From Leptospiraceae bacterium (GTDB taxonomy: Bacteria; Spirochaetota; Leptospiria; Leptospirales; Leptonemataceae): a stretch of DNA of 64,000 bases. The stretch covers positions 480,001-544,000 of the forward strand of contig JAVJNR010000005.1 in NCBI GenBank assembly GCA_040217195.1, given 5' to 3'. The notes beneath the pieces are model-generated. The model had not been told where the DNA came from and did no database searches. It worked only from the letters and a program-made list of their open reading frames with translations. This document shows positions 836-54,213 of this stretch, piece by piece. Numbering within the stretch: position 1 is the stretch's first letter; every line of letters starts with the position of its first letter. The position numbers and the translations under genes were made by a program.

Positions 836-2794
836 ATGCACCGATCCAGAATTGCCCGGCTGAGATATACTTTCGATAATTTCATGAGCAAGGGAGGCAT
901 GGCTGTATTTCTGGCCCTGCTTACCATGTTTGCAATTTCCTTTGTGGTTCTTTCCGGACTGAGGATTCTGCTTGGCCTTGTTTTACCCGACGATTCCGCT
1001 TCGAATGTTTTTGCTCAGATGTGGAGAGTTTTTCTTCAGATCCTGGACGGAGGCGCCATTGCCGAAGACACGGATGCAAACTGGCTCAGCCGACTTTCCG
1101 GAATAATTACAGTATTTGTAGGACTGATTCTATTTTCCAGCCTGGTTGCTTTTATTACCAGTCAGTTCGAAGCCAAATTAGCGGAGCTGAGGAAAGGAAA
1201 GTCCTCGGTTCTGGAGAGTGACCATGCTGTCATTCTGGGATTCGAAGATCGGATTCTGGATATTCTTCATGAACTGATCATTGCCAATGAAAGCGAATCC
1301 TACGCAGCTGTGGCCATTCTGGCAGATACTGACAAGGAAGAAATGGATGACTTCCTGAACGATCGGTTGCCGGACAGAAAAAGCACTCGTATTGTAACTC
1401 GCAGCGGCTCCACCAGCAGCATTGCATCTTTACGAAAGATGGGTGTAGAACATTGCAATTCCGTTCTTATACTGAATGAAGCTGGTTCTGCAGCCAGTCC
1501 AGAAGAGAGATCCGATGCAGATGCCAGGGTACTGAAATCTATCATCGCTGTGCTGGCAGCCACGGATAAAGAAAATCATCCTCCTGTGGTTGCCGAAATC
1601 CATTCTCCCAGACTGCGCCAGGTCGCTTCCAACCTTTCCGGTGGCAGTATTATTGCAGTGGATCGAGAGTCTCTACTGGCCCGAATGCTTGTTCAAACCT
1701 CCAGAGTGCCAGGGCTGTTTTCAGTATATTCCTCCATGGTGGGCTTCGAAGGGCAGGAAATCTATTTCTATCGTCCGGAAACTGGCTGGCAGAATGAAAG
1801 CTTTGCAGACATTCTATTTCGTTTTTCCGGCTCCGGAGTAATGGGGTTTCGGCATGCCGATGGAGAAATACTGCTGAACCCACCGGCGGATTTTAGACCG
1901 GCGGCCAATGATCAGGCAATCATTCTGGCCGAAGATGATTCCACCATCTACTATCTGGATGAAAAGATCCAGCGACCGGATGTAGAATCGCTACCAGAAC
2001 TTATCATCGAAAAGTCCCAGGAGTCCTATCTGATCTTTGGATGGAACCAGAAAGGACCTGTAATTCTGCGCGAGTATGCGGATTACATTCCATCTGGCTC
2101 TCGCATGAGCATAGTAACCCAGCCAAACGAAGATCATAGAGATACAATTGCTGCCACCATTGAAAGTGTATCCAGAGAGTATCCGTCGCTGACTCTGGAC
2201 TGGCAGGAGCGGGAGTGGAACTCAGGAGGAATCGATCGAGTGGGCCCGGAAAACTATGGAAATGTAATACTGCTGGCCAGGGACGGAACCAATCCGGAGT
2301 CCATTGATGCTGCAAGCATAGCAGGTTTATTGCAGGTCCGCCAGCATCTTGAATCCATTGAAAGGAAAACAGGACATCCGTCTAAGACCAGAGTGATTTC
2401 TGAAATCATGGATTCAGAGAACGTAGATCTGGTTCTGGAAACCGGAGTAAAAGACTTCCTGATATCCAATCAATTTATTTCTAGAATTCTTGCACAGGTT
2501 GCTCTGGAGCCGGATGTGCACTATGTGTATGAGGATCTGTTTTCCCCTGAAGGAAGCGAAATCTATCTGAAACCAATCTCAGCATACTTCCATGATACTT
2601 TGAAGCCCCGTTCCTACGGTGAATGTGTGTCTGCCGCTCTCAAAAGGAAAGAGGTCTGTATTGGAATTCGAATCGCTCGATTTGAAGCCGATCCGGATAG
2701 AAATCATGGCGTGCTGTTAATACCGAAAATGGATGAGCTATTTGAATTCACAGGAAAGGATAATTTGATCGTACTTGCAGAAGATGACAATTGA
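836..2794 (+). CDS. CASTOR/POLLUX (DMI1)-related putative cation channel, 2 TM + pore loop + two RCK-like domains
   Basis: RLRYTFDNFMSKG N-terminus, TM-pore(ILDGG)-TM, LRKGKSSVLESDHAVILG, RSGST, QTSRVPGL..VY...GFEG.EIY and GSEIYLKP motifs. ATG 836 preferred over TTG 800. Confidence 0.85.
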   Translation: MHRSRIARLRYTFDNFMSKGGMAVFLALLTMFAISFVVLSGLRILLGLVLPDDSASNVFAQMWRVFLQILDGGAIAEDTDANWLSRLSGIITVFVGLILFSSLVAFITSQFEAKLAELRKGKSSVLESDHAVILGFEDRILDILHELIIANESESYAAVAILADTDKEEMDDFLNDRLPDRKSTRIVTRSGSTSSIASLRKMGVEHCNSVLILNEAGSAASPEERSDADARVLKSIIAVLAATDKENHPPVVAEIHSPRLRQVASNLSGGSIIAVDRESLLARMLVQTSRVPGLFSVYSSMVGFEGQEIYFYRPETGWQNESFADILFRFSGSGVMGFRHADGEILLNPPADFRPAANDQAIILAEDDSTIYYLDEKIQRPDVESLPELIIEKSQESYLIFGWNQKGPVILREYADYIPSGSRMSIVTQPNEDHRDTIAATIESVSREYPSLTLDWQEREWNSGGIDRVGPENYGNVILLARDGTNPESIDAASIAGLLQVRQHLESIERKTGHPSKTRVISEIMDSENVDLVLETGVKDFLISNQFISRILAQVALEPDVHYVYEDLFSPEGSEIYLKPISAYFHDTLKPRSYGECVSAALKRKEVCIGIRIARFEADPDRNHGVLLIPKMDELFEFTGKDNLIVLAEDDN

Positions 2795-25447: not shown

Positions 25448-25482
25448 CCACAGGTGCCCCGTAGTAGCCCGGGGACCTGTGG
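25448..25482. terminator. Stem-loop downstream of the beta-barrel gene
   Basis: CCACAGGTgCCCCG...CGGGGACCTGTGG inverted repeat about 17 bp past the stop of 25499-26545. No clear U tract. Confidence 0.5.
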
Positions 25483-25498
25483 CAATCTGATTGCTAAC

Positions 25499-26545
25499 TC
25501 AAAAAGTAGCCGTAAAGACGGGCCCAATAATCCAGCTTCGATTAAAGGTAAGGGTCACTTCTGGCTCTGCGTACAAATAAGAGGTTTGAATTCCTACGTT
25601 TGGATGAAAGAAAAGCAATGCCGTGGTGGTTACATTCCAGGCGCCTTTATTCCAGTTCCTTCGCGCATTGATATTCAGGCTAAGAAACTTATTGTAGTCC
25701 ATGAAAAGGATCAATCCCCCACTTCTATCTTCCCTGGGAATCTGCGACATGGAACCTGCATTAATAGCACTTCCCACTCCATCGTAGGTCCAGGCCTGAA
25801 CAATAGCATTAGCATCTGTGGGAATCAGGTTTTCCTGACCAATAGAACGCCCAATCGTGGGACGAGTATTGATATGGTAACGATTGGCAGCATACTGAAC
25901 ATACGGAGTAATGCTCCAGCTCTGAATCGGCAATTTGAATCGAATTCCCAGTTTTCCCACATTAGAATGTGATCCATCATCTGCATCGATAACGGGAAAG
26001 GATTGATACACATTGGTTCCAATGGTCTTGAACAATGCATTGGTAACCTTATAATGTGCAGTGAAGCCCGTATGGGTGTACCCCACCATGGGCGCGATTG
26101 AGTCCGTTATATTCCAGTAATACTCTATGGACCCTGTGTAGACGTTTCCGTTGGCGCCTCCCCCTGCATTCTCTATAGGAAGAGTGGAGTCTCGCAGTGG
26201 AGTAAAGTTCACCTCGGCCCTTGTGTAAGCTGCAGAGATGACAAGGGAGTCGCTACGCAACATCATCTGAACCCCCTTTTGAGGCCCGACGCCTTCCACT
26301 GCCAGATCAAGCGTTCCTGACTGTGTCAGACCTGTAATTCTTCCTATGGCAGGCGAAACCGAAGCTCCGGTACTGGGATCCGTATAATTGAATGGCAGCG
26401 CAGATCGAAGCTGCAAATTCATCTGGCCCGCAAAGGGACTGATGATAAATCTCCAATCGGACCCATCTTCTTCAGCCAGCAGCAGGTTGGTTTGTCCTAG
26501 CAGGACCACAAGCAGCGTACCGACCAGTTTTCTTTTTAATCGCAT
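25499..26545 (-). CDS. Putative outer-membrane beta-barrel protein
   Basis: Signal peptide, alternating amphipathic strands, C-terminal beta-signal ending in Phe (IIGPVFTATF), GGAGG RBS. Confidence 0.7.
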   Translation of the reverse strand: MRLKRKLVGTLLVVLLGQTNLLLAEEDGSDWRFIISPFAGQMNLQLRSALPFNYTDPSTGASVSPAIGRITGLTQSGTLDLAVEGVGPQKGVQMMLRSDSLVISAAYTRAEVNFTPLRDSTLPIENAGGGANGNVYTGSIEYYWNITDSIAPMVGYTHTGFTAHYKVTNALFKTIGTNVYQSFPVIDADDGSHSNVGKLGIRFKLPIQSWSITPYVQYAANRYHINTRPTIGRSIGQENLIPTDANAIVQAWTYDGVGSAINAGSMSQIPREDRSGGLILFMDYNKFLSLNINARRNWNKGAWNVTTTALLFFHPNVGIQTSYLYAEPEVTLTFNRSWIIGPVFTATF

Positions 26546-26597
26546 TGAATTCCTCCAGATTCCGGCACTACTGTTTTCGCACCGATAGGCCTACTAT

Positions 26598-26613
26598 AGC
26601 AGGAAATGTGCCA
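26598..26613 (-). promoter_or_regulatory. sigma54 (-24/-12) promoter for the beta-barrel gene
   Basis: Minus strand reads TGGCACATTTCCTGCT (GG-N10-GC), about 50 bp upstream of the ATG. Confidence 0.7.
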
Positions 26614-26659
26614 GCACTATTGAGGCCAATCCTGCCTTGCTGAGTCCCCTGAAGGGGCC

Positions 26660-26706
26660 ATTGATTGAAATCAAGCAGAACGATTCTCAGCAGTTGATTG
26701 ATTTCA
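26660..26706. promoter_or_regulatory. Two-site enhancer-like motif A
   Basis: ATTGATTGAAATCAA (26660-26674), a 21-bp spacer, then GATTGATTTCA (26696-26706). Both boxes recur exactly as reverse complements at 34164-34209. Confidence 0.65.
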
Positions 26707-26853
26707 AACAGAGTTGCTCCGATTTCCTTTAGCTCAGGGATTTCAATTAGCTATCAATCAATCTAGAAACAGTGCAGAATCCATCCAGGAGGGCCTCCGC
26801 GTTAGATCTCCCCAGCAGCAGTAAGAATGAGAACACTGCACTAAATTCTACCC

Positions 26854-26869
26854 TGGCATGATTCCTGCT
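26854..26869 (+). promoter_or_regulatory. sigma54 (-24/-12) promoter for the SpoIIE-BASS genes
   Basis: TGGCATGATTCCTGCT (GG-N10-GC), 23 bp before ATG 26893. Confidence 0.65.
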
Positions 26870-26892
26870 TTAGTAATTGCAGGGTTGAGTTC

Positions 26893-29184
26893 ATGCTACA
26901 AATAACATTCTTCACATTTGGTACATCCATTGTGGCCATCTTCATGTTTGTGATGGCCTTGCTTTTGTTGCGAATCAAGAAAAGAGCCTATTCTACCAAT
27001 TTTCTGGCCGCAACATATCTATTGATCGGATTCCATGCACTGGCTTTCGTCATGGCTTCGTCGGTAACGCACCCGGCGGGTGCCTATCATCGCTGGATGG
27101 TTTTGCTAGTAGTGCCGGCTCTTTCGTGCATGACGCACTTCTTTTTTCATTATCCGCATCCCAGGTCAACTCAATGGGGAAGCAGGATATTCACTCTCCA
27201 GATATTGGCCTGGCTACTTTTCTGCGGATACTATATATGGAAAACTCTATCTGTCCAGCCCAGCTTCGATTCTGCAGAACATAGCTGGGTATTTCCCGTA
27301 CCAAACGCCAACAAAGCACTCGGAATCATGCTTATGGTCTATATGTTAGGCGTTGTAATCGCCGGCATCTGGAGAGCTTCTAGAAAAGAGCCCGGAGCGC
27401 GAACTGCCTGGATGTTTCTGACTCTCTTTTTGCTCTTAATCGTTCCTCCTGTGGTGGCCAACGGATTAAGTCGAGCAGGCATCATCAGCCGGGCGACCTT
27501 TCTAAGTATCTATATCTTCTTCATGGTACCTGGTGCCTTTTCTCTCTTGATACTTTACATCAATACTACCAATGACCGCACCAGATTTATTGGAAGAATC
27601 GTAGCCGTTTGCCTGGGCTCCTTTCTGCTCCTATTCTACTGGGCCGCACTGATTCAATTGCCCATCCTGGAAAAGAATTACGATCAGATTCATCTGCAGA
27701 AATCCTTTCAGGCAGTGTATGAGGATTCCGCGCAATCCGGGTTCTCGGTCCAGGCGATAGATCATGCGAAGTATGAGTTTCTGGAAACCGGGGCCGTCAC
27801 AGAGCGAAAATCTGCGCAGAAGGTGCACAGCGAGCCCATAAATCTATCAGATTCTCAGCTCAGGAGCTCCGGTCTGCTGGCCAGAAACTTTCGGCTAGTC
27901 AAACTGAACTCAAATGGTGCTCCAGCAACCATATCCTATCTCATTGAAGACACATCCTCCAGCACTCTGTACGAAATAGACTTTCAGTATTTAGACTATC
28001 GCGCCTATCTTCATGATGCTATGGGAAGGTACGTCCTGGTGCTTTTCCTTGCATTGTTTGTAGTCCTGGCAGGATTCCGGTTTTTCTTTAAAGGGGCGAT
28101 CTGGAATCCGCTACAATCCTTGCTCACAGGTATTCGCAAGGTTAATGAAGGCGATTTAAGCATTAGAATTCCTTTCAGGGTAAAAGATGAAATAGGTTTT
28201 CTTACAGAAACTTTCAATCAGATGGTAGAATCCATTCAGGATGCCAGGCATGCATTGGCCAACCATGCAGAAACTCTGGAAATCGAAGTAGATCGAAGAA
28301 CCATGGAGCTGCAGGAACTTCTGGAGCAGCAACGCGGGGATTATTACCTAACGTCCCTTCTATTAAAGCCATTCGGACGAAGCAGGATGCTCAATTCATC
28401 CGTGGGCATCGAATTCTTAACTCATCAAAAGAAGCAATTCTCCTTCAAGAATCAAGAATATGAAATTGGAGGAGATCTTTCCATGGCAGATCGAATCACC
28501 ATCGAGAACCGACCGTTTACAGCCTTCGTAAACGCGGATGCAATGGGAAAATCCATCCAGGGGGCTGGAGGCGCCATCGTCATGGGCTCCGTCTTTGGTG
28601 CAATTCTACAGAGAGGACAAACTCCAGAAACGGCCAGACTCTACAATACGCCGGAAAGATGGCTCGTGGCTGCCTATCGCGAGCTAAGTCGTGTTTTTGA
28701 GATGTTCGACGGGAACATGCTAATTACAGCCATCATTGGCCTGGTGGATGAAGAAAGCGGCACCGTCTATCTGGTCAATGCAGATCATCCGTTTCCAGCT
28801 GTTCTGCGAAAAGGCCGTGCTAGCTTTCTTCGCATGCGAGATGTTCAGGGGCGCCTGGGCATGCCTCCGGAAACAGGCAATAAATTTGTAGTACATACCT
28901 TCAAGCTCCAGGCCGGCGATGCCATGTTTCTTGGCTCGGATGGAAAGGATGATCTGGAGCTGGAACCTGCTAGCGATGGAACCAGATCCATAAACGATGA
29001 TGATCGAGTATTTCTCAAACAGATCGAAAAGCACAGTGGCGATCTGCAGTCCATCTATAAAGGCTTGCGAGAGGTAGGTTCCATAACCGACGACCTCTCT
29101 CTGGTTAAGATAGAGTTTTTTCCTGTGCGCACCAACGGGCAGATGCCTTCAGCACCACCTTCGGCATCCGTTCAGACTATCTAA
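26893..29184 (+). CDS. Multi-TM sensor + HAMP + SpoIIE/PP2C phosphatase
   Basis: About 8 N-terminal TMs, HAMP (GDLSIRIP...DEIGFLTETFNQM), then IGGD, ADAMGKSIQGAGGA, GSDGKDD and DDLSLV. Confidence 0.9.
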   Translation: MLQITFFTFGTSIVAIFMFVMALLLLRIKKRAYSTNFLAATYLLIGFHALAFVMASSVTHPAGAYHRWMVLLVVPALSCMTHFFFHYPHPRSTQWGSRIFTLQILAWLLFCGYYIWKTLSVQPSFDSAEHSWVFPVPNANKALGIMLMVYMLGVVIAGIWRASRKEPGARTAWMFLTLFLLLIVPPVVANGLSRAGIISRATFLSIYIFFMVPGAFSLLILYINTTNDRTRFIGRIVAVCLGSFLLLFYWAALIQLPILEKNYDQIHLQKSFQAVYEDSAQSGFSVQAIDHAKYEFLETGAVTERKSAQKVHSEPINLSDSQLRSSGLLARNFRLVKLNSNGAPATISYLIEDTSSSTLYEIDFQYLDYRAYLHDAMGRYVLVLFLALFVVLAGFRFFFKGAIWNPLQSLLTGIRKVNEGDLSIRIPFRVKDEIGFLTETFNQMVESIQDARHALANHAETLEIEVDRRTMELQELLEQQRGDYYLTSLLLKPFGRSRMLNSSVGIEFLTHQKKQFSFKNQEYEIGGDLSMADRITIENRPFTAFVNADAMGKSIQGAGGAIVMGSVFGAILQRGQTPETARLYNTPERWLVAAYRELSRVFEMFDGNMLITAIIGLVDEESGTVYLVNADHPFPAVLRKGRASFLRMRDVQGRLGMPPETGNKFVVHTFKLQAGDAMFLGSDGKDDLELEPASDGTRSINDDDRVFLKQIEKHSGDLQSIYKGLREVGSITDDLSLVKIEFFPVRTNGQMPSAPPSASVQTI

Positions 29185-29203
29185 CTTAAAATAGGAGAGT
29201 TAA

Positions 29204-30139
29204 ATGCAAAGTTCGCTTCTTCTGGAGTTGGTTTTACCAATTTCATTGTTTATCATTATGTTCGGTATGGGTTTGTCCCTGAGCATTCCGGATTTCACCC
29301 GAATTGCACGGTACCCCAGGGCTGTGGCCGTCGGACTCACCGCGCAGATATTTCTGTTACCTGTCATAGGGCTGGGAGTTGCAGAAGCATTTTCCCTGGA
29401 GCCATTGCTGGCCACAGGGCTGATGATTCTGGCTTTTTGCCCCTCTGGCGCAACATCCAATATGTATAGCTACATCTTCAAGGGCGATGTAGCACTTTCG
29501 CTGACCATGACAGCACTGATCAGTATTATCAAGCCATTCACTCTACCCTTTCTGGCTTACTATGCGATGCTTCATTTCCTGGGAGAGGGTATGATCATAG
29601 ACCTCCCCATTGGGAAAACCATCGCGCAACTTTTTATCATCACAGTACTTCCAGTTCTGATCGGTATGGTGGTAAGATACTATGCACATCGATGGGCCAC
29701 AAAGTTTGAAAAATACGTAAAGGTTTTCTCCGTGGTTATTCTGTTTGCAATCATCGGAGGGTTGATACGGCAGAATTGGGATCAAATGGTCGGCTTTTTT
29801 GCCCAGGCAGGGGCAGCCGCCATGACTCTAAACATTGTATCCATTACAGTGGGATTCTTGCTGGCACTGCTCATTCGCCTGGACAGAAAACAATCCATCA
29901 CAATAGCTTTTGAACTGGGTATCCAGAATGGAACCACAGCTTTGCTGGTAACTGGAACGATCCTGAAAGAACCGGCCATGACTGTGGTACCTGTGACCTA
30001 CAGTCTATTAATGTTTATTACCGCTCTGGTCTTTGGACTATCCATGCGATACTTATTTCGCGATCCTCGCAAGGAAAGCGATGTAGAATCTTCCAACACT
30101 CCCGACGCCATGGTAGCTTCTTTGCGAAATCGACCATGA
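29204..30139 (+). CDS. Bile acid:sodium symporter (BASS) family transporter
   Basis: MFGMGLSL, CPSGATSN, GDVALS, ELGIQNG motifs. Confidence 0.92.
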   Translation: MQSSLLLELVLPISLFIIMFGMGLSLSIPDFTRIARYPRAVAVGLTAQIFLLPVIGLGVAEAFSLEPLLATGLMILAFCPSGATSNMYSYIFKGDVALSLTMTALISIIKPFTLPFLAYYAMLHFLGEGMIIDLPIGKTIAQLFIITVLPVLIGMVVRYYAHRWATKFEKYVKVFSVVILFAIIGGLIRQNWDQMVGFFAQAGAAAMTLNIVSITVGFLLALLIRLDRKQSITIAFELGIQNGTTALLVTGTILKEPAMTVVPVTYSLLMFITALVFGLSMRYLFRDPRKESDVESSNTPDAMVASLRNRP

Positions 30140-30149
30140 ACTCACCCTT

Positions 30150-30178
30150 GCGGAGGCTACGGCCTCCGCCCTTTTTTT
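30150..30178 (+). terminator. Rho-independent terminator
   Basis: GCGGAGGC-TACG-GCCTCCGC followed by CCTTTTTTT. Confidence 0.85.
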
Positions 30179-30476
30179 ATCCCATTGATTCATTGTATTA
30201 ATCCGTTCTCCTGGCAAAATCAAGACATCACATTCTTTGATCCATTTGTTAATACATTCTATTGCTCTATTGATATTGCCTTTATCCTGACAAACCACAC
30301 TCGGATGGATATAAAGCTATCAAGACTCGCTGGAAACTGTTCTGATTGTTCCAGGTAGGCTCCCGCCATTTCAGTATTCTGTTTTTCATCAAGCCAGGCA
30401 AATAACTGAATATTCAGCCCTTGCCATTTGGAATGGCTGGTCTGCTTTTTGCGAACAACATCCTTCAAGGGATGAC

Positions 30477-32804
30477 TTACTCCATTCCCAGATGCCGCAT
30501 CTGGTACTGTAATTTTCCTCTGGAAATATGCAGGTATCGCGCTGCTTCGGACTTGTTTCCATCGCAATGATTTAGCGCTGCTTCTATCATTCTTCGGGAG
30601 TAAATGGCTATCTGCTCTTCAAATCCAGCTGCGGCCACAGACTCATTTCCATTGGCTCTAGGGGCTGCCGGAACCGAGATAGTTCGATTGGAAACTCGCA
30701 TGGACTCCGGCACATCACCGGCTTCAATGCGGTCTGAGTCCAGATTGGCCATAATTCGAATAATGCAATTTTCCAGCTCTCGAATGTTTCCAGGCCATTC
30801 ATATTCAACCATCATAGCCATGGCTTCATCGCTAAGCTCCGGACATTCCAGATCCATTTGATCAGAATATCGATTCAAGAAACCCTGAATCAGATGCGGA
30901 ATATCCGATCGGCGCTCTCTTAATGGAGGGATGCGTACTTCAAAAACATTGATTCTATAATATAGATCTTCGCGAAATGTACCATCTGCAACCATGGACT
31001 TCAAATCCCGGTGTGTAGCAAATATGATTCGACAGGTAGCCAGTAGCTCATCCCGGCCCCCCAGACGCTTGTATTTGCCTTCCTGCAGCAGACGCAGTAT
31101 CTTGGGCTGAATCTCCAGGGGCATTTCGCCAACTTCATCAAAGAACAGTGTTCCTCCATTCGCTTCTGCGACATGGCCGGCGTAGTCTGAACGTGCGTCC
31201 GTGAAGGCCCCCCGTACATGCCCAAATATCTGACTTTCCCAGAGGGTAATGGGCACCGCAGCACAGTTTATTGGAACGAACGGCCCGCCTTCTGGATGAC
31301 CTTCATGGTGCAAAAGGGCTGCGATGAGCTCCTTACCCGTTCCTGTCTCTCCGTTAATTAATACAGGTTGCCGACGCTGGGCAATTCGCTTCACTCGTTC
31401 CACTGCAGCATGCATGCTTCGGCTGGCATATATTAAACTCTTGTCGCCCAGCTTTCGCTCCTCTGGCGCTGCATCAAAAATAGAGTCCGACTCCAGAATG
31501 GTTCTTTCCAGGCTGGTGGTGTACTGCCTCAACTCGTCCCGGGCATCTCGAATGGATTTAACCATGGAATTGAATGCCTTTCCCAGTTGGCCCAGCTCAT
31601 CGCTTCCTTCTGCTCTTAGCTGAACACCCAGTTCCCCGCCCTGCACCTGATCCACGGCAGAAAGCAACGAATCCAGAGGCTTAAGCAAAGCCATTCGCAT
31701 AAAATACAAAAGACCGGCTGTCAAAATCAGGAATGATAATAACATGAGGCCCACCCATCCCAGTAGATAATCATGTATCAAAGACCGATAGGACAGATAG
31801 GGAAGTGCTATCTCAGTGTTTCTTTCCTGATTCCAGAACAATACCTCGGGATGCAAACCGGGAGGGCTATAGAAGCCCCAGTAAAGGGTCGCACTGTTTT
31901 GATTCGTGCGAAGATACTCATTGTTCCGTTCCCGGATTTCCCCGGCGTACAGCGCCTCATCAGGTGCAGACTGGCCCTGGTATTCAGCCAACAGGCGAAA
32001 CCCATTGTTCGCATATTCATTCTGGGCTGCAATATATAGTGAAGTAGTCATGATCTGGGCTGTACACAAGCCCAGGGCCAGAGCTACGGTGAGGATTCGC
32101 ATACTCAGGGAAACTCGAAAGTCCGCATAGGTCACAAAAAATACGAAGAAGAAGAAGAATCCCAGGGTTGCGAAGCCTGCCATGCCAATACTGAAACCGG
32201 CTGCATCCAGTGTACCTACGCGATAGAGTGCCAGCAAGACCATGGGAACGGTAAGCTGAAGCAAATAGGCCAGTATGGCACTGATTGCAGCCAGGAGCCT
32301 CTTTCCGCTCAGTCGAAAGGCCTGCCACAGGCCGGTAACCAGACAAAATAGATTAAGCGCAAGAAGAAGAATGGCCACACTCTTTCCTGCAGTTTCTGCT
32401 TTTAAATCCCAGAAATGGCCGGAAAGTCGGAAGAATAGTGGAGCATCGAAAGTCTCGAAAAAGAACACTACTGCAACGCCAACAGCCAGAATTATTTCAG
32501 TCAGAAAAATGGCTCTCTGATAACGCTGCAATCGACTGGTTTGAAATAGTAAGAAGAACTGATGAAAGAATATGATTGTGCTCAATGTACTTGGGACAGT
32601 GACCCAGCGATGGTACGCTCCCAGGTTTCTGGTCTCGGCAGAAGTGTAGACCACCGCCGCATAGAAGATAGCCATAGATAAGAAGGCAATCTCCAATGAA
32701 CGAAGGGCCGGTCCACGATTTCGAATCACCCGGCAATAGACCATGGCCACCACGCAAAAGAGCATTGCAATAGCGGTAGATAGTGTTATCGGCTGTAGAT
32801 ACAT
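30477..32804 (-). CDS. Membrane-anchored multi-TM/HAMP sigma54-dependent enhancer-binding protein (Fis-type HTH)
   Basis: N-terminal TMs, HAMP (DELGQLGKAFNSM), GETGTGKE, GAFTDA, FFDEV, FREDLYYRI, WPGNIREL, GNKSEAARYLHISR. Confidence 0.92.
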   Translation of the reverse strand: MYLQPITLSTAIAMLFCVVAMVYCRVIRNRGPALRSLEIAFLSMAIFYAAVVYTSAETRNLGAYHRWVTVPSTLSTIIFFHQFFLLFQTSRLQRYQRAIFLTEIILAVGVAVVFFFETFDAPLFFRLSGHFWDLKAETAGKSVAILLLALNLFCLVTGLWQAFRLSGKRLLAAISAILAYLLQLTVPMVLLALYRVGTLDAAGFSIGMAGFATLGFFFFFVFFVTYADFRVSLSMRILTVALALGLCTAQIMTTSLYIAAQNEYANNGFRLLAEYQGQSAPDEALYAGEIRERNNEYLRTNQNSATLYWGFYSPPGLHPEVLFWNQERNTEIALPYLSYRSLIHDYLLGWVGLMLLSFLILTAGLLYFMRMALLKPLDSLLSAVDQVQGGELGVQLRAEGSDELGQLGKAFNSMVKSIRDARDELRQYTTSLERTILESDSIFDAAPEERKLGDKSLIYASRSMHAAVERVKRIAQRRQPVLINGETGTGKELIAALLHHEGHPEGGPFVPINCAAVPITLWESQIFGHVRGAFTDARSDYAGHVAEANGGTLFFDEVGEMPLEIQPKILRLLQEGKYKRLGGRDELLATCRIIFATHRDLKSMVADGTFREDLYYRINVFEVRIPPLRERRSDIPHLIQGFLNRYSDQMDLECPELSDEAMAMMVEYEWPGNIRELENCIIRIMANLDSDRIEAGDVPESMRVSNRTISVPAAPRANGNESVAAAGFEEQIAIYSRRMIEAALNHCDGNKSEAARYLHISRGKLQYQMRHLGME

Positions 32805-32863
32805 TTTGACCTGGGTATTTTCCTTGAGCCTGTAGCTCCGGCAAGATTGAGCAACTGAAATTT

Positions 32864-32899
32864 AAAAAATCCCCGGACAACTCGGAGGGGTTGCCGGGG
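32864..32899 (-). terminator. Rho-independent terminator after the DUF3089 gene
   Basis: Minus strand reads CCCCGGCAAC...GTTGTCCGGGG followed by ATTTTTT. Confidence 0.6.
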
Positions 32900-32997
32900 T
32901 TCATTTAAAAGTTCATTCGCACCGACTGCAATCTGGTTTTGCCGACGGACTTATGCGGGTTGCCTGACCCTGTGGTCTTAAGAATACTCCATAAGAC

Positions 32998-34026
32998 TTA
33001 ACGAAGAAAGGACTGTAACCTCTGTTCGATATTGCGACGAATATCCATATAGAAAAGTGAGTAGTCCGCTACATGGTAGTTTTCCTTCTCTCCGCGTTTG
33101 GGACCGTATCCGGCTTCGTCAGGTACCTTTACCCATAGCATGTCACCCTGACAACGGGCACTGACCATGTTCCTGTCGGCCCGATCAAAATCAAAGTTAA
33201 TGGCTCCCAGATGAGACGATGGATCTACAGTTCTGTCATCCATAGCCCAGCTGATCGGATTTATACAGATACCATCCGTGTATCGGGTCGCTGGAATCGC
33301 GAAGTCCTCTGGTTTTGATCCCCATTTTTTGGAGTTCCAGGAAATGTAACATCCTGTATCAGTGGCGCTCATACATGGCTTCAGTCTCTTAAACCTATCT
33401 GGCTTAACAGCCCAACCTGGAAGATAGGCAGCAACAAAGTTCGGATTCTTATTTGAATCCAGGTACTCGGCCAGCACATCAATCAGCAACATGGAACCCT
33501 GGCTATGACCGGCCAGAAAGAACGGTCTACCGTTATTATGATGCTTTAAATAGTACTGAAAGGCCTTAAGAACATCTTCTCTGGCTACAGAAAAAGCCTG
33601 TCTGGAGTTCGAAGTATTGTCCACAAAGGAATAGAGGGTAGCCTGACGATATCGCGGAGCAAATACCCGGGCACTTCCGTTAAACACGGAAGCCTGCAAC
33701 TTTAATGGAGAAAGACCGTACACATTGACGCTTGCTGAGTATGGTGCATTCCAACCATCGGAGCTAAGATAGGTAGTGGGATGAACAAAGAAAACATCCG
33801 CCCGCGCAGTGGACTGAGAATTCTTCAAGTCAGTGTTTAAAGGAACATTGTCTGCATCATCTTCCATTTCGGGTAATGCAGCCCAGGCCTCTCTCTGTGA
33901 ATAGTCCGGAGCCTCCGGTACTGATTCCATCTGAAAATCAGAAGATGGCTCAATCCAGAATAGTAGCAAAGTGGTACATTGACCGAGTAACAATATTGAT
34001 AGAATCGGAATTATCCGTCGCAGCAT
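32998..34026 (-). CDS. DUF3089 family alpha/beta hydrolase, probable lipoprotein
   Basis: APDYS...WAALP, ADVFFVHPTTY, FAPRYRQA, GHSQG, CINP, YHVADYSLFY. ATG 34026 with GGGAGG RBS and LLGQC lipobox-like motif. Confidence 0.88.
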   Translation of the reverse strand: MLRRIIPILSILLLGQCTTLLLFWIEPSSDFQMESVPEAPDYSQREAWAALPEMEDDADNVPLNTDLKNSQSTARADVFFVHPTTYLSSDGWNAPYSASVNVYGLSPLKLQASVFNGSARVFAPRYRQATLYSFVDNTSNSRQAFSVAREDVLKAFQYYLKHHNNGRPFFLAGHSQGSMLLIDVLAEYLDSNKNPNFVAAYLPGWAVKPDRFKRLKPCMSATDTGCYISWNSKKWGSKPEDFAIPATRYTDGICINPISWAMDDRTVDPSSHLGAINFDFDRADRNMVSARCQGDMLWVKVPDEAGYGPKRGEKENYHVADYSLFYMDIRRNIEQRLQSFLR

Positions 34027-34074
34027 TTTATAACCTCCCGTTCCGCCTGAAGCTGGATACGTTATCCGATTGGA

Positions 34075-34090
34075 TGCAAAGATCATGCCT
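34075..34090 (-). promoter_or_regulatory. sigma54 (-24/-12) promoter for the DUF3089 gene
   Basis: Minus strand reads AGGCATGATCTTTGCA (GG-N10-GC with TTGCA), about 50 bp upstream of the ATG. Confidence 0.6.
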
Positions 34091-34163
34091 GGCAATGAAC
34101 CAGGGCATATGAGATTAAGATAGGTTTTAGACTGTTACAGTGGCGAAGACCGGGGCAATCAAC

Positions 34164-34209
34164 TGAAATCAATCGATTGCCCGGAGTAAGGCGATTGATT
34201 TCAATCAAT
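34164..34209. promoter_or_regulatory. Two-site enhancer-like motif B
   Basis: TGAAATCAATC (34164-34174), a 20-bp spacer, then TTGATTTCAATCAAT (34195-34209). These are the reverse complements of the motif A boxes. Confidence 0.65.
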
Positions 34210-34465
34210 ACCTTCCGATGCCCCTTTCAGGCATTTCACCAAATGATTACCCGGGTTTCAAATGGAAAAGGCTGGCTCCCTGTTTCCTGGCTGTTTGTTC
34301 CAGATGCCAGGATCGATAGTCCAGATTGCCTGTATCGGTAGTTTCGAGGCATTTTAGAGCAATCTAACACCGCACGGCTTCAGGGGGCTTCCTTCCCCGC
34401 CCAGGACTCACTCAGATTGCCGAATGCTCCACTTTATCTGCGAAGCCCACTCTTCTTACCAACGC

Positions 34466-34481
34466 TGGCATGCATATTGCT
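34466..34481 (+). promoter_or_regulatory. sigma54 (-24/-12) promoter for the PHA depolymerase gene
   Basis: TGGCATGCATATTGCT, a near-consensus TGGCAC-N5-TTGCW, 51 bp before ATG 34533. Confidence 0.75.
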
Positions 34482-34532
34482 TAGAAGTATCGGGCCCATA
34501 AAAATAAATCATGCGAGGGCCCGGGGGGAAAA

Positions 34533-35366
34533 ATGATCAAAACTATAAAAAACAAAACTCAATGGATGATAGTTCTGGCTGTGGCCGGCATCCTGAGTAC
34601 AGCAGGAACCCTGGAAGCTTCCAGATGCAGGACGTCTGGATGGTTCATAAAAACCACCAGTTGCACCTATCAGCAGACCAGGATCCAGGCAAGGCCAGGA
34701 ATCTATAGAGATGTAAGGTTTCAGGTTCCAGAAGGAAGCCCACCTCCAGGAGGGTGGCCGGTAGTAGTAATGTACCAGGGCTCATTCTTCCCGGTTGAGT
34801 TTTCCAGAAACCAGCTGGCACCATTCGGTGGATACTACGAAGTGAAGGTAATAGAAAAGCTACTGAACAATGGTTTTGCAGTTATCGCTCCAGATGCAGG
34901 TATCGATCTATTCTGGGAAACCAATCTTCCCGTCATCTATGAGTTCACTGCTGACTACATATTCTTGAACAATCTGTTCAATGCGATTCGCAGCGGTCAC
35001 TTTGGGCCTATCAATGACAACAAGAAGTTTGCCACCGGGATTTCTAGCGGCGGATACAATACAAGTCGAATGGCCGTCTCTTATCCGGGTGAATTCAAAG
35101 CTCTGGTTGTACAGTCCGGTTCCTATGCAACCTGTTCCGGACCTCTTTGCATTGTGCCTTCATCGCTTCCAAATGACCATCCACCTACCTATTTCCTGCA
35201 TGGTTTTCTGGATCTGGTAGTTCCGTGGTGGAGTATGGATCTGTACTACGATAGGCTTCGCTCAGAAGGGGTGCCCACGGGTAGATACACGGATTATACA
35301 GCGGACCATGAGTGGTTCTCTGCATCACCTGGAAAAGTGTATAGCTGGTTCAATCAGTACCGCTAA
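34533..35366 (+). CDS. phaZ: Extracellular medium-chain-length PHA depolymerase (Pseudomonas fluorescens GK13 PhaZ type)
   Basis: Signal peptide/ASRC, PPPGGWPVV..YQGSFF, PFGGYYE, lipase box GISSGGYNTSRMAVS, QSGSYATCSGPLC, HPPT.FLHG..D.VVPWWSMDLYYDRL and HEWF. These match the GK13-type PhaZ motifs from memory. Confidence 0.85.
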   Translation: MIKTIKNKTQWMIVLAVAGILSTAGTLEASRCRTSGWFIKTTSCTYQQTRIQARPGIYRDVRFQVPEGSPPPGGWPVVVMYQGSFFPVEFSRNQLAPFGGYYEVKVIEKLLNNGFAVIAPDAGIDLFWETNLPVIYEFTADYIFLNNLFNAIRSGHFGPINDNKKFATGISSGGYNTSRMAVSYPGEFKALVVQSGSYATCSGPLCIVPSSLPNDHPPTYFLHGFLDLVVPWWSMDLYYDRLRSEGVPTGRYTDYTADHEWFSASPGKVYSWFNQYR

Positions 35367-35381
35367 TTCCTTTCTCAATTG

Positions 35382-35411
35382 GACCTCTGTTCGCTCAGTT
35401 GAACAGAGGTC
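35382..35411 (+). terminator. Stem-loop/terminator after phaZ
   Basis: GACCTCTGTTC-8 nt-GAACAGAGGTC followed by TTT. Confidence 0.65.
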
Positions 35412-35435: not shown

Positions 35436-35978
35436 ATGAACCTGGAAAAAATGAAATCAAGGCTGCCGAACTTAGAAATTCTCATCACCCCCGCTGCGAA
35501 TCATGGACCATGGAGTCCAGGTCGCAGAAAAAGCGAAATCCGGTCATCATTCATTAAATCGATAATTACAATACTGGCCTTTCTGCTACTGAGTTGTTCC
35601 GAAAAAGAGTCCAGCGAGCCCTGCAGTGGCGACCTGGATCCAGCTGCGCTATCAACGATTCAAGGACTCTGGGCCCCGGATGCCAGAAACCTTCCCGATG
35701 GACTCAACGAGCGCGGCCAGACTCAGCTTCTTAAGAGTCGTATTCAATTCAGCAAAGCTGGATATGGTTATCATGCGGACGGCCGCCCCATCCATAGAGT
35801 TCCACTCAGCGGTCTTTCCAGAGACGGAAAAACAGTACATGTCTTTCTCAGATCTGGAAACGGCCAATGCGAAGAAATGAAAATTGAACTTCTGGATAGA
35901 AATTCCATTCGCTTAATTCTTAGCGAAGATTATCCGGTCATTCGATATAAACGGGAAAAGAATCATGAAACGCTCTAA
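35436..35978 (+). CDS. Hypothetical protein, possible lipoprotein
   Basis: GAGGG RBS, hydrophobic stretch ending LLLSC, then an IQG.W lipocalin-like motif. True start uncertain. Confidence 0.5.
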   Translation: MNLEKMKSRLPNLEILITPAANHGPWSPGRRKSEIRSSFIKSIITILAFLLLSCSEKESSEPCSGDLDPAALSTIQGLWAPDARNLPDGLNERGQTQLLKSRIQFSKAGYGYHADGRPIHRVPLSGLSRDGKTVHVFLRSGNGQCEEMKIELLDRNSIRLILSEDYPVIRYKREKNHETL

Positions 35979-36600
35979 TATAATATTCCTTTCGATTTTT
36001 TCACTTAACCTGGCAGGACTGCTTCTTCTATTTCTATCCCCCTGCTCCATGGAGCCTGTGCAGGAACCCGACCAGGCGAGCTCGAATTATTCGGATTCCT
36101 ATTTGGCCGCTTCAGAGGAGAACACCTTGCCTGAAGTCTCAGAACCCGAGGAATCGAAGCAACCGGAGCAGGCAGAGCTTGCACTGTATGAGATGGATCT
36201 TCGAATTCTGGACATTCACAATAGCGCAATCGAACTATACAGGCAGCGAACGACTCTAATTCATGAATTGTTTCAGAATCAAAACGTTTCAAATAGCCTG
36301 GTTCCAGGTTCCCAACCGGAAAACCAGATTGCCATGCACCAGAGAATGGATGAGCTGCAAGCTCTGGCCAGCGCTAATGAGCTGAGTCGATTAGAACAGA
36401 TCGAATTTCTGGAGCTTCAAGTTCGAAAAAAGAAAGACCAACTTGCTATTCAGCGCCGAGTAGCCGGGCTTTATTCAGATCAAGCTCACCTGGGTCCGGA
36501 AGGCGATTATAAGAAACACATAAAAAATCTGGAGTCTGAGATCCAGCAACTGGAAGAAAAACTCAATCGAGTCCAGAGTTCCGGATATCGCATAGATTAA
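35965..36600 (+). CDS. Hypothetical membrane-anchored coiled-coil protein
   Basis: N-terminal hydrophobic anchor and E/Q/L-rich heptads. Overlaps the previous gene by 14 bp. Confidence 0.55.
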   Translation: MKRSNIIFLSIFSLNLAGLLLLFLSPCSMEPVQEPDQASSNYSDSYLAASEENTLPEVSEPEESKQPEQAELALYEMDLRILDIHNSAIELYRQRTTLIHELFQNQNVSNSLVPGSQPENQIAMHQRMDELQALASANELSRLEQIEFLELQVRKKKDQLAIQRRVAGLYSDQAHLGPEGDYKKHIKNLESEIQQLEEKLNRVQSSGYRID

Positions 36601-36790: not shown

Positions 36791-39700
36791 TCATGAGTAA
36801 CTGGGCTCAATGGATTTTCTTTTCAGAAAGACGTCACCTTTCCATCTGGCAGTGCGATTCTCTGCGACATCGAAACCGCGAATAATGGAATCCCTCAGAT
36901 CTATAGCGTCGACCACTTCATCCAGAGCTCCACTTCCCAGGGCATCCTGGTCTGCCCGAAAACGAGCCCGGTAATCGTCTAGATACTCCGACCTGAGCTT
37001 TCGGGCTTCATGAATTCTTTCTTCGCGTAGTAGCTTCTGGTATTCCTTTTGTTTGAACAGTTCGAAGGCAGCTTCCGCTCCCATGACGGCCATAGTTGCA
37101 TCCCGAAGGGCAATAGAGTAAATGCCTGGTCTGAGGAATCGACTGAATGCATGAATCTGTCGGCCTCCATAATTCTGACGCAGAACCACCGATACGATGG
37201 GAATACTGGAAAGCACATTTACGTCCAGGGACTCCCCACCAATTTGCTGGATTCGCAGTCTTTCCTGTTGCGTTCCAGGTAAGAATCCGGGTGCATTGGA
37301 CAACATCAGCAATGGAAGACCCCGGACATCTATCCTTTCCACAAATTGACGAAACCTTTCTGTACCACGGGCATCCGGCACTCCACCCCGGACCGGCTGA
37401 TCTGCGATTATTGCGATGGACTTTCCATTTAGCCTGGCTGTGGCAGTAATCAGGTTCGGCTCAGGCCTGGAATCCTGCCAGAACATCAGGGTCCGGGAAT
37501 CCACAATACCGCGAAGTATTTCCTTCATATCAAATGGTTGCGATGCCTCGGGTAACTGAAGTTCCAATTCAGGTGGCGTCCCGGTTCGCATAGCAGACAA
37601 TGCATTTATTTCGCTGATTCGCATAAAAGCACTGAAAATGCTGCTCTCCTGAAAATCCGCCGGGCTTTCTGCTTCTATGTCAGGATCCTTATCAGGACTG
37701 ACCAGGATGATGGCCTCCGCATTCTGATTTAGAGCCACACGATTCAGGCCTTCCGGATCCAGCACCATATGGTATGTGGAGCTGCGAAGATTGGCACAGG
37801 TTCGCAGGAAATCCATCCTTGCCCGGATTCGCTCCGTAGCTTCCGTTTCCGGTCCAGGGCGATACCAGTGCTTGCCAAAAAAAAGGATTACTGGAAGGGC
37901 CAATCGATCCGCCGCTCTGAGAAGATCTCTGGCCTTATGGATGGCCGCAATAGATCGAATGCCAGCTTCTCCTGGACCCATGATCAAATACGGCTGACCT
38001 TGAATCCTACCCAGCCAGGCACCCAGAGCCCCCGCGGCGGAATAATTCTCCTTCAACGAGATCAACTCGCCGCCTGTGCAGAAATCCAACAATGCATGGG
38101 TAACATAGCTCCCGAACATAGAATCCGTTTGACCATTGTTTCTCAATGCAGCAGAATCCGGCAGCGAATACGATAATGACTTTTCCTTTTCTGGTTTTTC
38201 CGCGGTCCGCATCAGCCGATGAATTTTTCGAATCTCAAGTATTAACTCCGATTTGTCCCGCGCTATCCTATCAACTGTACCTGTAAATCCCATGACCGGA
38301 GCACCACCGATTTCGTAGTTCGTCAGATCTTCGCCGGTAACGCTACGAATTACATTGGATCCAGTCAGAACTCTAAAAGAACCCGGCTCATCGAGCATAA
38401 CCTGGATCGGGGCCTGGGAAGAGCCGTATACATCCAATCCAGTTGAAGAGCCCATACCTACGGCGGCCAGAAAGAAGGATTCTGGCTGGATTTTTCCATC
38501 GGATTCCACCATGGATTCCACATCTGAAAGAAGTTCATGAATTTCCGGATCCTGGATCTCTGTACACCTTCGAAAGTATTCATCGTATTTCGGACGGTTA
38601 GAGGTCAGTGCATTAAAGAAGAACCCCTCGGCAGCACGATTTAATGCAATCATACCTTCTTTAATATTAGCGCCTGCACCATCGTTCCAGATATAGATAG
38701 GGGTATCCGAGAGATAGGCATAATGCAAAGAGGCAACATACATCTGACCTTCCAGATTTCCCGTTGCGCCACCATTAACCCGCGAATCCTTGATGTAGAA
38801 TAGACAGTCCTGGTTATGCATTTCACCGGCAAACAACCTGCTCCCTATTCGCCTAAGCCGGTTCGGTAAATTGGCCTTCTGGTTTTCACCATCTAATTCC
38901 AGCATCGCTTCGAGACGAGGAAATCGAATTTCCCTGATCGTACCGGGGTCGAAGGTTTCTCGTGCCCAGATCTCTGGAGTCCACTTACCCTTTTCCAGCA
39001 ATCCACGTGTGGCATCGTCAATGTCCGCCGAACCATTCGGATGCACCGGGTCCTCTTCTGGAACCATTTCCAGCCGGGCCTGGCCATTCAGTGCAGAGAT
39101 TCGAAAGAGTCTGCGTTTTGTACTACCCGAATACTCCCTGGTTAAATAATCTGCGATTACTGAATCCACCGGAAGCGGCAAATAATGAACCACCAGCCTG
39201 CGAATCACTTTCATTATACTTTCGTATTGCGAATAGCCATGGATGGATCTAAAGTCCATGGCGGCAATCTGTCCATGCCCAAGTATATGTAACTTCCAGC
39301 GAACCGCTGGATAATCAGACTGCAACTTCTTTAGAGCTTTACTTGCAGACCTGGCAGCCCTTTCCAGATCCGGAATACCCGTATCGTCTCTTAAAACGGA
39401 TTCTGCATTGGTGGAATCATCGTCCAGCCAGACCATACAGTAGCCCGGCTTTCCCTGTTTATGAACATATGTGGCCACATTCCGATGTCCGGAGTCAATT
39501 CGCACCCAGTTCTGTTCATACCTGGAATGCTCTGCACCGGAGATATCCCTTTGATCCAGATCTTCCTTCACAGAATCCAGTTCCAGAAGACGTTCAATCT
39601 CCATGCGTACGAAATCTGGCCATTCAGGTTGCAGGTAATTCTGGATCTGATTTTCACTAATAGGAAGTTGACCAGGATCTAAAGACCGAGAAGATTCCAA

Positions 39701-53166: not shown

Positions 53167-54213
53167 TTACTGTTCTTTCAAAGTCTTTCGGTAGGAACCG
53201 GGAGTAGAACCGAACCAGCCCTGGAATGCATGCTGAAAGGAACTTGCATCCGAAAAACCTAAAAGATGAGCAATTTCTATCATTCGGATATCTTCTTTAA
53301 TATAATGTTGAACCAGAGTCTTTCGTGTTTCTTCCAGAAGATCCCGAAAGCTGGTTCCTTCTGCCTTTAGCTTACGCTGAAGAGTACGACGATCCATAAA
53401 AAGCTGATCCGCCACATCATCAATACCGGTCTTTCCCTCGGGAAGGAGCCTGAGTAGCAATTCCTGCACTTGGTGCCCCAGACCGGTGCGTACTTCCAGT
53501 TGCTGTAGAAGTTGTTCAGCTCTGCCTTCCATATATCGCTGAATATAGGAGTTGGCCGTATTCAATTCACAGGATAAATATTTTCGATCCAAAACCAGCC
53601 CAGTATCAGGCTGCTTGAACTTGATTTCCGTTTGAAAGATTTCTTCGTATTTCTTCTTATAGCCTGGATCCGCATGTGCGTATCTAACCTCGTTCAGCTC
53701 GATACGTTTGCCGGTAAATTTCTTGATATAATGGTAGCATTGAACCGTATAATGCTCGGACATCCAGCGGTTCTGGTGGGCCACGGATGTGTTAATATAG
53801 TGAATACCGGCTGTTTTCTGACCTTCTCTAAATTCAAAGCGATCTGTCTCGCAGACCAGACGGGCAAATCTAGCCCAGTGACGAAGTGCTGCTCGCAAAT
53901 TGGAACAGAGCATTACGATGTGGGTCACAAAGTGCATTTGCGAATCCCCGTAATGAGAAAATAAATCCAATCCCAGAGAGGGGTTATCGGTGCGCTCCAC
54001 AGCCAATTGCCATAGATCCAGGCATTGGCGCAGGCCAATTCGCATATCCGGATCATCGAAGGAGAAGTCCTGCAGCCCAATATTCTGGCAGATTTCCTGC
54101 AACTCCATGCCATTCTTCTGTAGAAGTGCAATGAGAACTGGATTGACCATGGATGAGGTGGTGGGCTGCACGCTATGCTGAGAATTCTTTTCGTCGCTTG
54201 AAATGGCCTTCAT
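53167..54213 (-). CDS. AraC family regulator with Arabinose_bd_2-type N-terminal domain
   Basis: DPDMRI...LW..AV..T.NP.LGL N-terminus. C-terminal VADQLFMDRRTLQRKLKAEGTSF...IAHLLGFSDASSFQHAF..WFG.TP. Confidence 0.9.
   Translation of the reverse strand: MKAISSDEKNSQHSVQPTTSSMVNPVLIALLQKNGMELQEICQNIGLQDFSFDDPDMRIGLRQCLDLWQLAVERTDNPSLGLDLFSHYGDSQMHFVTHIVMLCSNLRAALRHWARFARLVCETDRFEFREGQKTAGIHYINTSVAHQNRWMSEHYTVQCYHYIKKFTGKRIELNEVRYAHADPGYKKKYEEIFQTEIKFKQPDTGLVLDRKYLSCELNTANSYIQRYMEGRAEQLLQQLEVRTGLGHQVQELLLRLLPEGKTGIDDVADQLFMDRRTLQRKLKAEGTSFRDLLEETRKTLVQHYIKEDIRMIEIAHLLGFSDASSFQHAFQGWFGSTPGSYRKTLKEQ

Follow-up and report, generated by a model that had tools for sequence, protein, structure and literature searches.

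Does a gene for a sigma-54 activator that lies between two divergent intergenic spacers govern the promoters of both, and if so, to what end? The question is raised by a stretch of 64,000 nucleotides from a Leptospiraceae bacterium (positions 480,001 to 544,000 of contig JAVJNR010000005.1, assembly GCA_040217195.1), hereafter called the window, to which positions refer unless a genome handle precedes them. A sequence-only reading of the locus at 25499-35366 had proposed a self-contained sigma-54 regulon for extracellular polyester and lipid scavenging. In that reading the spacers 26546-26892 and 34027-34532 each carry two outward-facing -24/-12 elements placed 23-52 nt before a start codon, and the four units encode an outer-membrane protein (OMP), a sensor phosphatase of the PP2C type together with a BASS transporter, a DUF3089 esterase lipoprotein, and a secreted depolymerase (PhaZ) of medium-chain-length polyhydroxyalkanoates (mcl-PHA). 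We consider it probable that the locus constitutes a compact regulon of sigma-54: a membrane-bound bacterial enhancer-binding protein (bEBP) is predicted to bind a tandem palindrome and to activate four promoters for the scavenging of mcl-PHA. The architecture of this putative regulon is well supported by the comparisons given below; the signal, the roles in transport and the substrate are what we infer.

Promoters and palindromes of the two spacers

All four -24/-12 elements lie at the positions and distances first read for them (Table 1) and match 9-10 of the 11 consensus positions; the fourth site matches 9/11, with GG and GC intact. Exact matches to TGGCAY-N5-YTGCW number three in the window, all of them in the two spacers, compared to 0.41 expected, and none of 100 shuffles reached three. 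Genome-wide there are 33 exact matches, compared to about 17 expected by chance (arithmetic from base composition). The gene for sigma-54, rpoN, was looked for and found as a 495-aa frame at G000:C5:367891-368367 (Sigma54_DBD, 216.1 bits). One-mismatch -24/-12-like sites were also seen at 25480-25495 (+), TGGCAATCTGATTGCT, just past the stop codon of the OMP gene, at 54086-54101 (+), TGGCAGATTTCCTGCA, and at 1642-1657 (+), TGGCAGTATTATTGCA.

The 12-mers common to both spacers resolve into a 14-bp palindrome, GATTGAWWTCAATC, which is present twice in each spacer, the two copies being 32-33 bp apart. A first register of this palindrome, ATTGATTNNAATCAAT, was replaced after the Leptospira loci had revealed the true core. 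The 4.6-Mb genome has one perfect copy, located in the 34027-34532 spacer, along with 14 copies with one mismatch and 138 with two, and only two pairs spaced 20-60 bp apart (at most two mismatches in each copy), which are the pairs of the two spacers. Of the two -24 elements flanking a pair, the closer is about 50-100 bp downstream of it and the other is about 145-290 bp away, and because of these distances one pair could serve both divergent promoters.

Conservation and co-occurrence in the Leptospirales

The comparison set consisted of 156 Leptospirales genomes. The NCBIfam e_dPHAmcl model, which describes PhaZ, scored above its cut-off in 19 of these, 3 from the window's genus, 14 from one Leptospira-family genus and 2 from two further genera, and about 10-20 kb was fetched around each of the 19 phaZ loci. 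The carriers include Leptospira sarikeiensis, L. haakeii and Leptospira sp. 96542, and homologs of the OMP are also named from L. wolffii, L. inadai, L. selangorensis and sp. GIMC2001. The same-genus relatives of the window go under the name of Leptonemataceae, not Leptospiraceae, although some Leptospira do have this system too.

Genes for the bEBP, PhaZ, the OMP and the PP2C protein are found near each other at 19/19 loci. BASS is present at 18 of them, the 19th stretch stopping at a contig end, and DUF3089 likewise at 18/19. The genes occur in three orders (arrowheads give direction): OMP<>PP2C-BASS, <bEBP <DUF3089 >PhaZ in the window's genus; <bEBP <DUF3089 >PhaZ, an open reading frame, <OMP >PP2C-BASS in most Leptospira; and PhaZ>, an open reading frame, <bEBP <DUF3089 <OMP >PP2C-BASS in genome G065. 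Full-length orthologs of the bEBP (E <= 1e-150) were detected in 18/156 genomes, all 18 of which are PhaZ-positive, and in none of the 137 PhaZ-negative genomes; in the 19th PhaZ-positive genome the bEBP gene is cut by the end of a 9.8-kb contig. Among the Leptospira-family genomes searched, the bEBP is present in 15/114.

The promoters were scored across the loci as elements with GG and GC, at least 8/11 consensus positions and a distance of at most 160 nt from the start codon. Under this definition the -24/-12 element is conserved before the genes for the OMP (19/19), PP2C (19/19), DUF3089 (17/18) and PhaZ (18/19). The PP2C element is found 14-23 nt 5' of the start codon in 19/19 genomes. 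When 683 kb were scanned on both strands, 90 sites reached a score of 9/11 or more, and 70 of them were these promoters (counted from the table of sites). Both promoter exceptions are in G065, where DUF3089 lies behind the OMP gene in one operon. Autoregulation of the activator through a -24/-12 element was considered and rejected: no such element precedes the bEBP gene at any of the 19 loci and the gene sits behind a terminator, so the gene does not appear to be autoregulated by this route.

The palindrome follows the same course. All 41 copies with at most one mismatch fall within the target spacers (16.5 kb) and none falls elsewhere in the 19 loci (341.5 kb). Perfect copies are restricted to the cluster genome-wide in G026 (1/1), G147 (2/2) and G118 (2/2), and the AT-rich G065 has many near-matches throughout its genome. 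The spacers of the window and of L. sarikeiensis have little in common beyond the palindrome and the promoter piece, apart from a handful of short matching 8-mers. Regulation in trans, as against an artefact of the locus, is most clearly indicated by G118 (Leptospira sp. 96542), where the main cluster is without DUF3089 and an OMP-DUF3089 operon is found on another contig (L097, G118:C55, 9515-11816). This unlinked operon has its own tandem palindrome, with a spacing of 33 bp, and the element TGGTACGAATTCTGCA 23 nt before the ATG, and it compensates for the DUF3089 gene missing from the main cluster.

The palindrome has a counterpart in the activator. The helix-turn-helix (HTH) motif GNKSEAARxLxISRGKLQYQM is essentially invariant in 18 orthologs (that of G118 is cut by the contig end) at an overall identity of about 50%, and it differs in all 7 paralogs of the genome; the invariance of the HTH matches that of the palindrome. 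It could be argued that the -24/-12 elements are real but driven by another bEBP, that the palindrome binds a different protein, e.g. a repressor, and that the local bEBP regulates something else. The genome does offer candidates, as it has 8 bEBP genes. However, the local bEBP and its targets have been gained or lost together (18/18 full-length orthologs PhaZ-positive, 0/137 PhaZ-negative genomes), an invariant HTH accompanies an invariant palindrome, and the distance from the tandem sites down to the -24 elements is about 50-290 bp, which is the usual geometry of bEBP sites. We regard this explanation as extremely unlikely. The proposal that the four units form one sigma-54/bEBP regulon gains support from the conserved promoters, the genome-unique repeat and the strict co-occurrence in 19/156 genomes.

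The boundaries of the units are given in Table 1. A start of the DUF3089 gene at TTG 34095 was rejected in favour of the ATG at 34026, which gives the N-terminus MLRRIIPILSILLLGQC.

Table 1. Coordinates of the genes, predicted regulatory elements and terminator-like structures of the locus in the 64-kb window
Feature	Position	Strand	Remarks
-24/-12 element of OMP gene	26598-26613	-	TGGCACATTTCCTGCT; 52 nt before start; exact consensus match
-24/-12 element of PP2C-BASS operon	26854-26869	+	TGGCATGATTCCTGCT; 23 nt before PP2C start
-24/-12 element of DUF3089 gene	34075-34090	-	AGGCATGATCTTTGCA; 48 nt before start
-24/-12 element of phaZ	34466-34481	+	TGGCATGCATATTGCT; 51 nt before start
Predicted upstream activator site A1	26663..26676	.	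GATTGAAATCAAGC; one mismatch to GATTGAWWTCAATC
Predicted upstream activator site A2	26696..26709	.	GATTGATTTCAAAC; 33 bp from A1
Predicted upstream activator site B1	34161..34174	.	AACTGAAATCAATC; two mismatches to GATTGAWWTCAATC
Predicted upstream activator site B2	34193..34206	.	GATTGATTTCAATC; sole perfect copy in genome; 32 bp from B1
OMP gene	25499..26545	-	348 aa, signal peptide; predicted substrate channel
Multi-transmembrane-HAMP-PP2C (SpoIIE) sensor phosphatase gene	26893..29184	+	Pfam SpoIIE 84.3 bits, HAMP 48 bits
BASS/SBF inner-membrane transporter gene, 3' of PP2C	29204..30139	+	Pfam SBF PF01758 126.2 bits; predicted hydroxy-acid importer
Strong intrinsic terminator closing PP2C-BASS unit	30150..30169	+	8-bp stem, 7 GC pairs, T-run
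Sigma-54 activator (bEBP) gene, between the two spacers	30477..32804	-	775 aa; Pfam and hydropathy
Terminator-like hairpin and T-run 3' of DUF3089, between DUF3089 and bEBP genes	32871..32887	-	
DUF3089/lipolytic family XV alpha/beta-hydrolase gene	32998..34026	-	Pfam DUF3089 178.7 bits; predicted lipoprotein
phaZ, extracellular mcl-PHA depolymerase gene	34533..35366	+	277 aa, signal peptide, GISSG box; NCBIfam NF050057
11-bp hairpin 3' of phaZ, weak T tail	35382..35411	+	possible terminator or attenuator; read by eye, not called by terminator scan
orf211, small N-terminally anchored coiled-coil protein	35965..36600	+	follows phaZ; possible seventh member

Homologs of orf211 (about 200 aa) follow phaZ in the three gene orders and have the motif FHxRLDxL...LQxRKKKD but no Pfam family. 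We can only guess that the protein assists the hydrolase in its folding or its secretion. Between phaZ and orf211 there is a small predicted lipoprotein, orf180 (35436-35978, +), which has no family and is inserted at this place in the window's genus only; it was dropped as a member of the system, as it is not conserved 3' of phaZ in Leptospira. Further downstream lies a gene for a 1941-aa carboxylase (36791-42616, -) whose single chain unites the biotin carboxylase, biotinyl and carboxyltransferase domains. Although the gene orders differ, carboxylase homologs adjoin the cluster in G118, in G065 and in the genus of the window, and none was seen within the stretches fetched from the remaining Leptospira. 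As to the occurrence of the locus 25499-35366 in sequencing runs, all runs with at least half of the sampled words are labelled as marine metagenomes (3 rows, 2 studies). None of the RNA runs queried matched, and 18 metagenome-labelled DNA rows hold part of the locus.

Substrate, sensor and proposed mechanism

PhaZ reaches 383.7 bits with the NCBIfam equivalog NF050057 (e_dPHAmcl, cut-off 270), as opposed to only 33.9 and 26.7 bits with the models for short-chain PHA and polyhydroxybutyrate (PHB) depolymerases. It starts with a hydrophobic segment, read as a signal peptide, and contains a GISSG box; this box and the residues S171, S172, D227 and H259 do not vary among 4 orthologs, and the residues presumably include the catalytic triad. 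PhaZ is 51-63% identical to its homologs at six gammaproteobacterial loci and 42% identical to that at one deltaproteobacterial locus. Between the two spirochete families its identity (67-78%) is above that of the bEBP (43-51%), the OMP (52-62%) and any other member.

The DUF3089 protein has a GHSQG nucleophile elbow in its translation. A Cys follows the hydrophobic core of the signal in the window protein and in 17/17 orthologs printed, and this conserved residue suggests that the protein is a lipoprotein. Members of DUF3089 are described as lipolytic family XV esterases with GHSQG, of which Est10 prefers C4 esters. The OMP has no match in Pfam or NCBIfam, and the clusters closest to it by language model consist of unnamed proteins about 367 aa long. 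An AlphaFold2 model from an alignment of 14 sequences gave a predicted local distance difference test score (pLDDT) of 69.9, a predicted template-modelling score (pTM) of 0.66 and 12 long strands, i.e. a predicted 12-strand beta-barrel; it superseded a single-sequence model with a pLDDT of 34.3. Searches of PDB sequences with the OMP, PhaZ and the DUF3089 protein gave no match. The BASS protein has about 8-9 hydrophobic segments. On the whole, the identities first read for the gene products (OMP barrel, HAMP-PP2C, BASS, DUF3089 esterase, mcl-PHA depolymerase) agree with the profiles and the barrel model.

The same regulon might serve another substrate, such as cutin or suberin, triacylglycerols, synthetic polyesters, or host or algal lipids, in which case it would be a general module for ester and lipid scavenging. 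Leptospira depends on fatty acids, channels for hydrophobic substrates (FadL, TodX) are among the generic fold matches of the OMP, and the relatives of DUF3089 include short-chain and aryl esterases such as Est10. In addition, lipases can degrade mcl-PHA and vice versa, according to a recent study (PMC13101487). On the other hand, the PhaZ score exceeds the equivalog cut-off while the short-chain and PHB models hardly respond, and the protein is more than half identical to its gammaproteobacterial homologs. A different substrate is therefore unlikely in our opinion, and mcl-PHA remains the one that we prefer.

The activator gene lies between the two spacers, as first read, and its product has the domains expected of a bEBP: Sigma54_activat (PF00158, residues 458-623, 208.8 bits), an AAA lid and HTH_8 (737-770, 36.9 bits), preceded by HAMP (368-420). 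Walker A (GETGTGK) and Walker B (FFDEVGEM) are intact. By hydropathy there are about 8 transmembrane segments in residues 1-255, then an outside loop (about 90 residues) and a further segment (345-369) immediately N-terminal to HAMP. The count of seven segments in the sequence-only reading, given there for the PP2C protein, is corrected to about eight plus one, and by this profile the bEBP is an integral membrane protein.

The N-terminal part of the bEBP, about 470 residues, is paralogous to the sensor of the PP2C protein (25% identity over 471 aa, E 3e-32). An exhaustive HMMER search with bEBP residues 1-370 gave 181 cluster representatives, 96 of them at E <= 1e-10, and was used instead of a word-index search, which had returned few relatives (10). 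The domain scan of the sensor family took in the query and the top 43 among the representatives with a length of 500 aa or more. HAMP was found in all 44, SpoIIE in 27, HATPase_c in 6, a sigma-54 domain in 5 (including the query) and MCPsignal in 4. The sensor family is thus mostly wired to PP2C, and the fusion to a bEBP is a rare case. In the alignment of the sensors R66, D133, Y336, Y339 and R340 are invariant and H65 and H130 nearly so. Another polytopic bEBP is encoded in the genome at G000:C3:149046-149783 (840 aa); its N-terminus is of unrelated sequence, and it has a GAFTDA loop. Frames of 800-1000 aa for bEBPs are numerous in related genomes, and membrane-embedded bEBPs may be a habit of the lineage.

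These properties of the sensor could also mean that the activator reports the state of the envelope or membrane, for example its perturbation by free fatty or hydroxy acids, and that the regulon is a protective or remodelling response with PP2C as its main output. The sensor is largely intramembrane, with the conserved polar residues R66, D133, H65 and H130 in or near the transmembrane segments. Most of its relatives are joined to PP2C phosphatases, whose usual place is in the partner-switching of stress responses. But a secreted depolymerase, an esterase and a transporter are among the products of three of the four units, the gene set strictly co-occurs with PhaZ, and no envelope-repair genes were found with the palindrome; we rate this alternative as very unlikely.

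The regulon for mcl-PHA would then work as follows. The multi-transmembrane/HAMP sensor of the bEBP would probably detect, at the membrane or its periplasmic face, a hydrophobic or amphipathic product of the polyester, for example monomers or oligomers of 3-hydroxyalkanoates. HAMP would relay the signal to the AAA+ ring of the protein bound at the tandem GATTGAWWTCAATC in each divergent spacer, and the ring would remodel the sigma-54 holoenzyme at the four -24/-12 promoters. Secreted PhaZ would convert the polymer into oligomers and monomers, the family XV esterase lipoprotein would likely cleave the oligomers, the 12-strand barrel would likely provide entry across the outer membrane and BASS import across the inner one. 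The PP2C protein, having the same kind of sensor, would likely add a second output for the signal, one that is itself induced. The activator gene, with no -24/-12 element and a terminator upstream, would be expressed separately. We tentatively go one step further and suggest, as a possibility to which we give somewhat less than even weight, that the membrane-embedded bEBP reads extracytoplasmic polyester products and drives its AAA+ domain directly, i.e. without a kinase or a soluble ligand domain; the ring would open four promoters held at the membrane, and the PP2C paralog would serve as the second inducible output. If true, this would be the first dedicated regulon for sensing, secretion and uptake directed at extracellular mcl-PHA, and a new transmembrane class of bEBPs.

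There are a number of points that weigh against this reading and need to be discussed. With one mismatch allowed, the window contains 10 promoter-like sites versus 8.99 expected, i.e. there is no enrichment; because this total is at the level of chance, the promoter signal resides in quality, placement and orientation and not in number. The phaZ gene of G065 has TAGCACGGTTCTTGCA (TAGCAC-N5-TTGCA), where AG replaces GG at -24, and two degenerate palindromes besides it upstream. In G005, a genome of the window's genus, one extra perfect GATTGATTTCAATC is found outside the cluster (C4:1327478-1327491, L094); it stands alone between two genes of the same strand, and no -24/-12 element was seen nearby. 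The sigma-54 contact loop of the bEBP is GAFTDA and not the canonical GAFTGA; F and T are kept, and the same loop is found in 18/18 orthologs covering the region, and two more of the genome's bEBP paralogs have it. The sensor is found mostly on PP2C phosphatases (27/44), and its relatives tell nothing about the ligand. Foldseek matched the OMP to generic barrels only (EstA, NalP, FadL, TodX; TM-scores 0.3-0.55), and an assignment to FadL/TodX, which have 14 strands, an N-terminal hatch and the Toluene_X family, was rejected on account of the missing Pfam match, the 12 strands and a TM-score of about 0.33. BASS scores 190.1 bits with TIGR00841, below the cut-off of 326.3. With about 9 transmembrane segments in each subunit, such a bEBP has to assemble on DNA that lies at the membrane, an arrangement for which we found no description. 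Finally, we infer every regulatory step from sequences.

Comparison with known systems

It is worth considering first what the locus may add to the literature. In the extracellular degradation of mcl-PHA, both the regulation and the uptake of the products are poorly known, and the cluster provides testable candidates for them, namely the OMP barrel, BASS, an esterase of family XV and a regulator dedicated to the system. A 2026 transposon study of Burkholderia reports that no uptake element for the degradation products of mcl-PHA was identified (PMC13101487). Our literature search, whose coverage was partial, found nothing that links a PHA depolymerase with sigma-54 or with Leptospira; nor did it find, in titles and abstracts, a membrane-integral bEBP. 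A bEBP with about 9 transmembrane segments and HAMP would challenge the usual picture of soluble activators on looped DNA, and the sigma-54 field would gain a defined operator with four promoters. Storage polyesters of bacteria, and bioplastics, are probably a food source for a subset of Leptospira and for marine Leptonemataceae, and the operator and promoter set could become a sensor module for PHA breakdown products.

The locus may be compared to the catabolic bEBP regulons, i.e. those of XylR/DmpR (aromatics), AtoC (acetoacetate), PrpR (propionate) and HbcR. HbcR is described as the regulator of (R)-3-hydroxybutyrate catabolism in Pseudomonas aeruginosa (PMC8694187). The overall design is similar in as much as a dedicated AAA+ activator that ends in an HTH of the Fis type is combined with tandem sites upstream and with -24/-12 elements before catabolic and uptake genes. 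With the PrdR, NtrC, NorR and AtoC models the AAA+/HTH part of our bEBP scores 285-306 bits, in each case below the equivalog cut-off. Differences are found at the input and at the output: the known activators are soluble and have V4R, PAS, GAF or receiver domains, whereas the one described here has about 9 predicted transmembrane segments with a HAMP linker and the GAFTDA loop, and its putative targets are extracytoplasmic (a secreted enzyme, a lipoprotein, an OMP).

Within Leptospira, the available text of a review names only two activators, EbpA (GAF-GAF, FhlA-like) and EbpB (receiver, NtrC-like) (PMC12655853), and the EbpA-RpoN pathway supports environmental survival of Leptospira according to two articles (PMC12655853, PMC4758666). 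Our bEBP is likewise a spirochete sigma-54 activator but would represent a third type beside these, with a membrane sensor, and it appears to be linked to polyester and ester hydrolases rather than to amtB or nitrogen genes.

As for the depolymerase, PhaZ resembles the extracellular mcl-PHA depolymerase of Pseudomonas (GK13 type), with which it shares the NCBIfam equivalog, the signal peptide and the GISSG box. At the 7 non-spirochete phaZ loci, on the other hand, there is no adjoining bEBP, OMP, DUF3089, PP2C or BASS gene, no palindrome and no strict -24/-12 element, and because of this absence the sigma-54 wiring and the accessory genes seem to be specific to the spirochete version. Three of the gammaproteobacterial loci (L042, L043 and L044) have a common TTGAC...CGGAATCGGAAT element just upstream of phaZ, which is possibly a sigma-70 promoter with the operator of a regulator of its own.

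Finally, there is a likeness to regulators of the ToxR/CadC type, since the sensor and the DNA-binding output, known here from the genes, are parts of one membrane-anchored polypeptide. In that type, and presumably here, the target DNA must come to the membrane. The underlying designs are otherwise different: ToxR and CadC are single-pass proteins with a winged helix that act with sigma-70, while the protein described here would combine a polytopic sensor, a HAMP linker and a hexameric AAA+ motor working on sigma-54.

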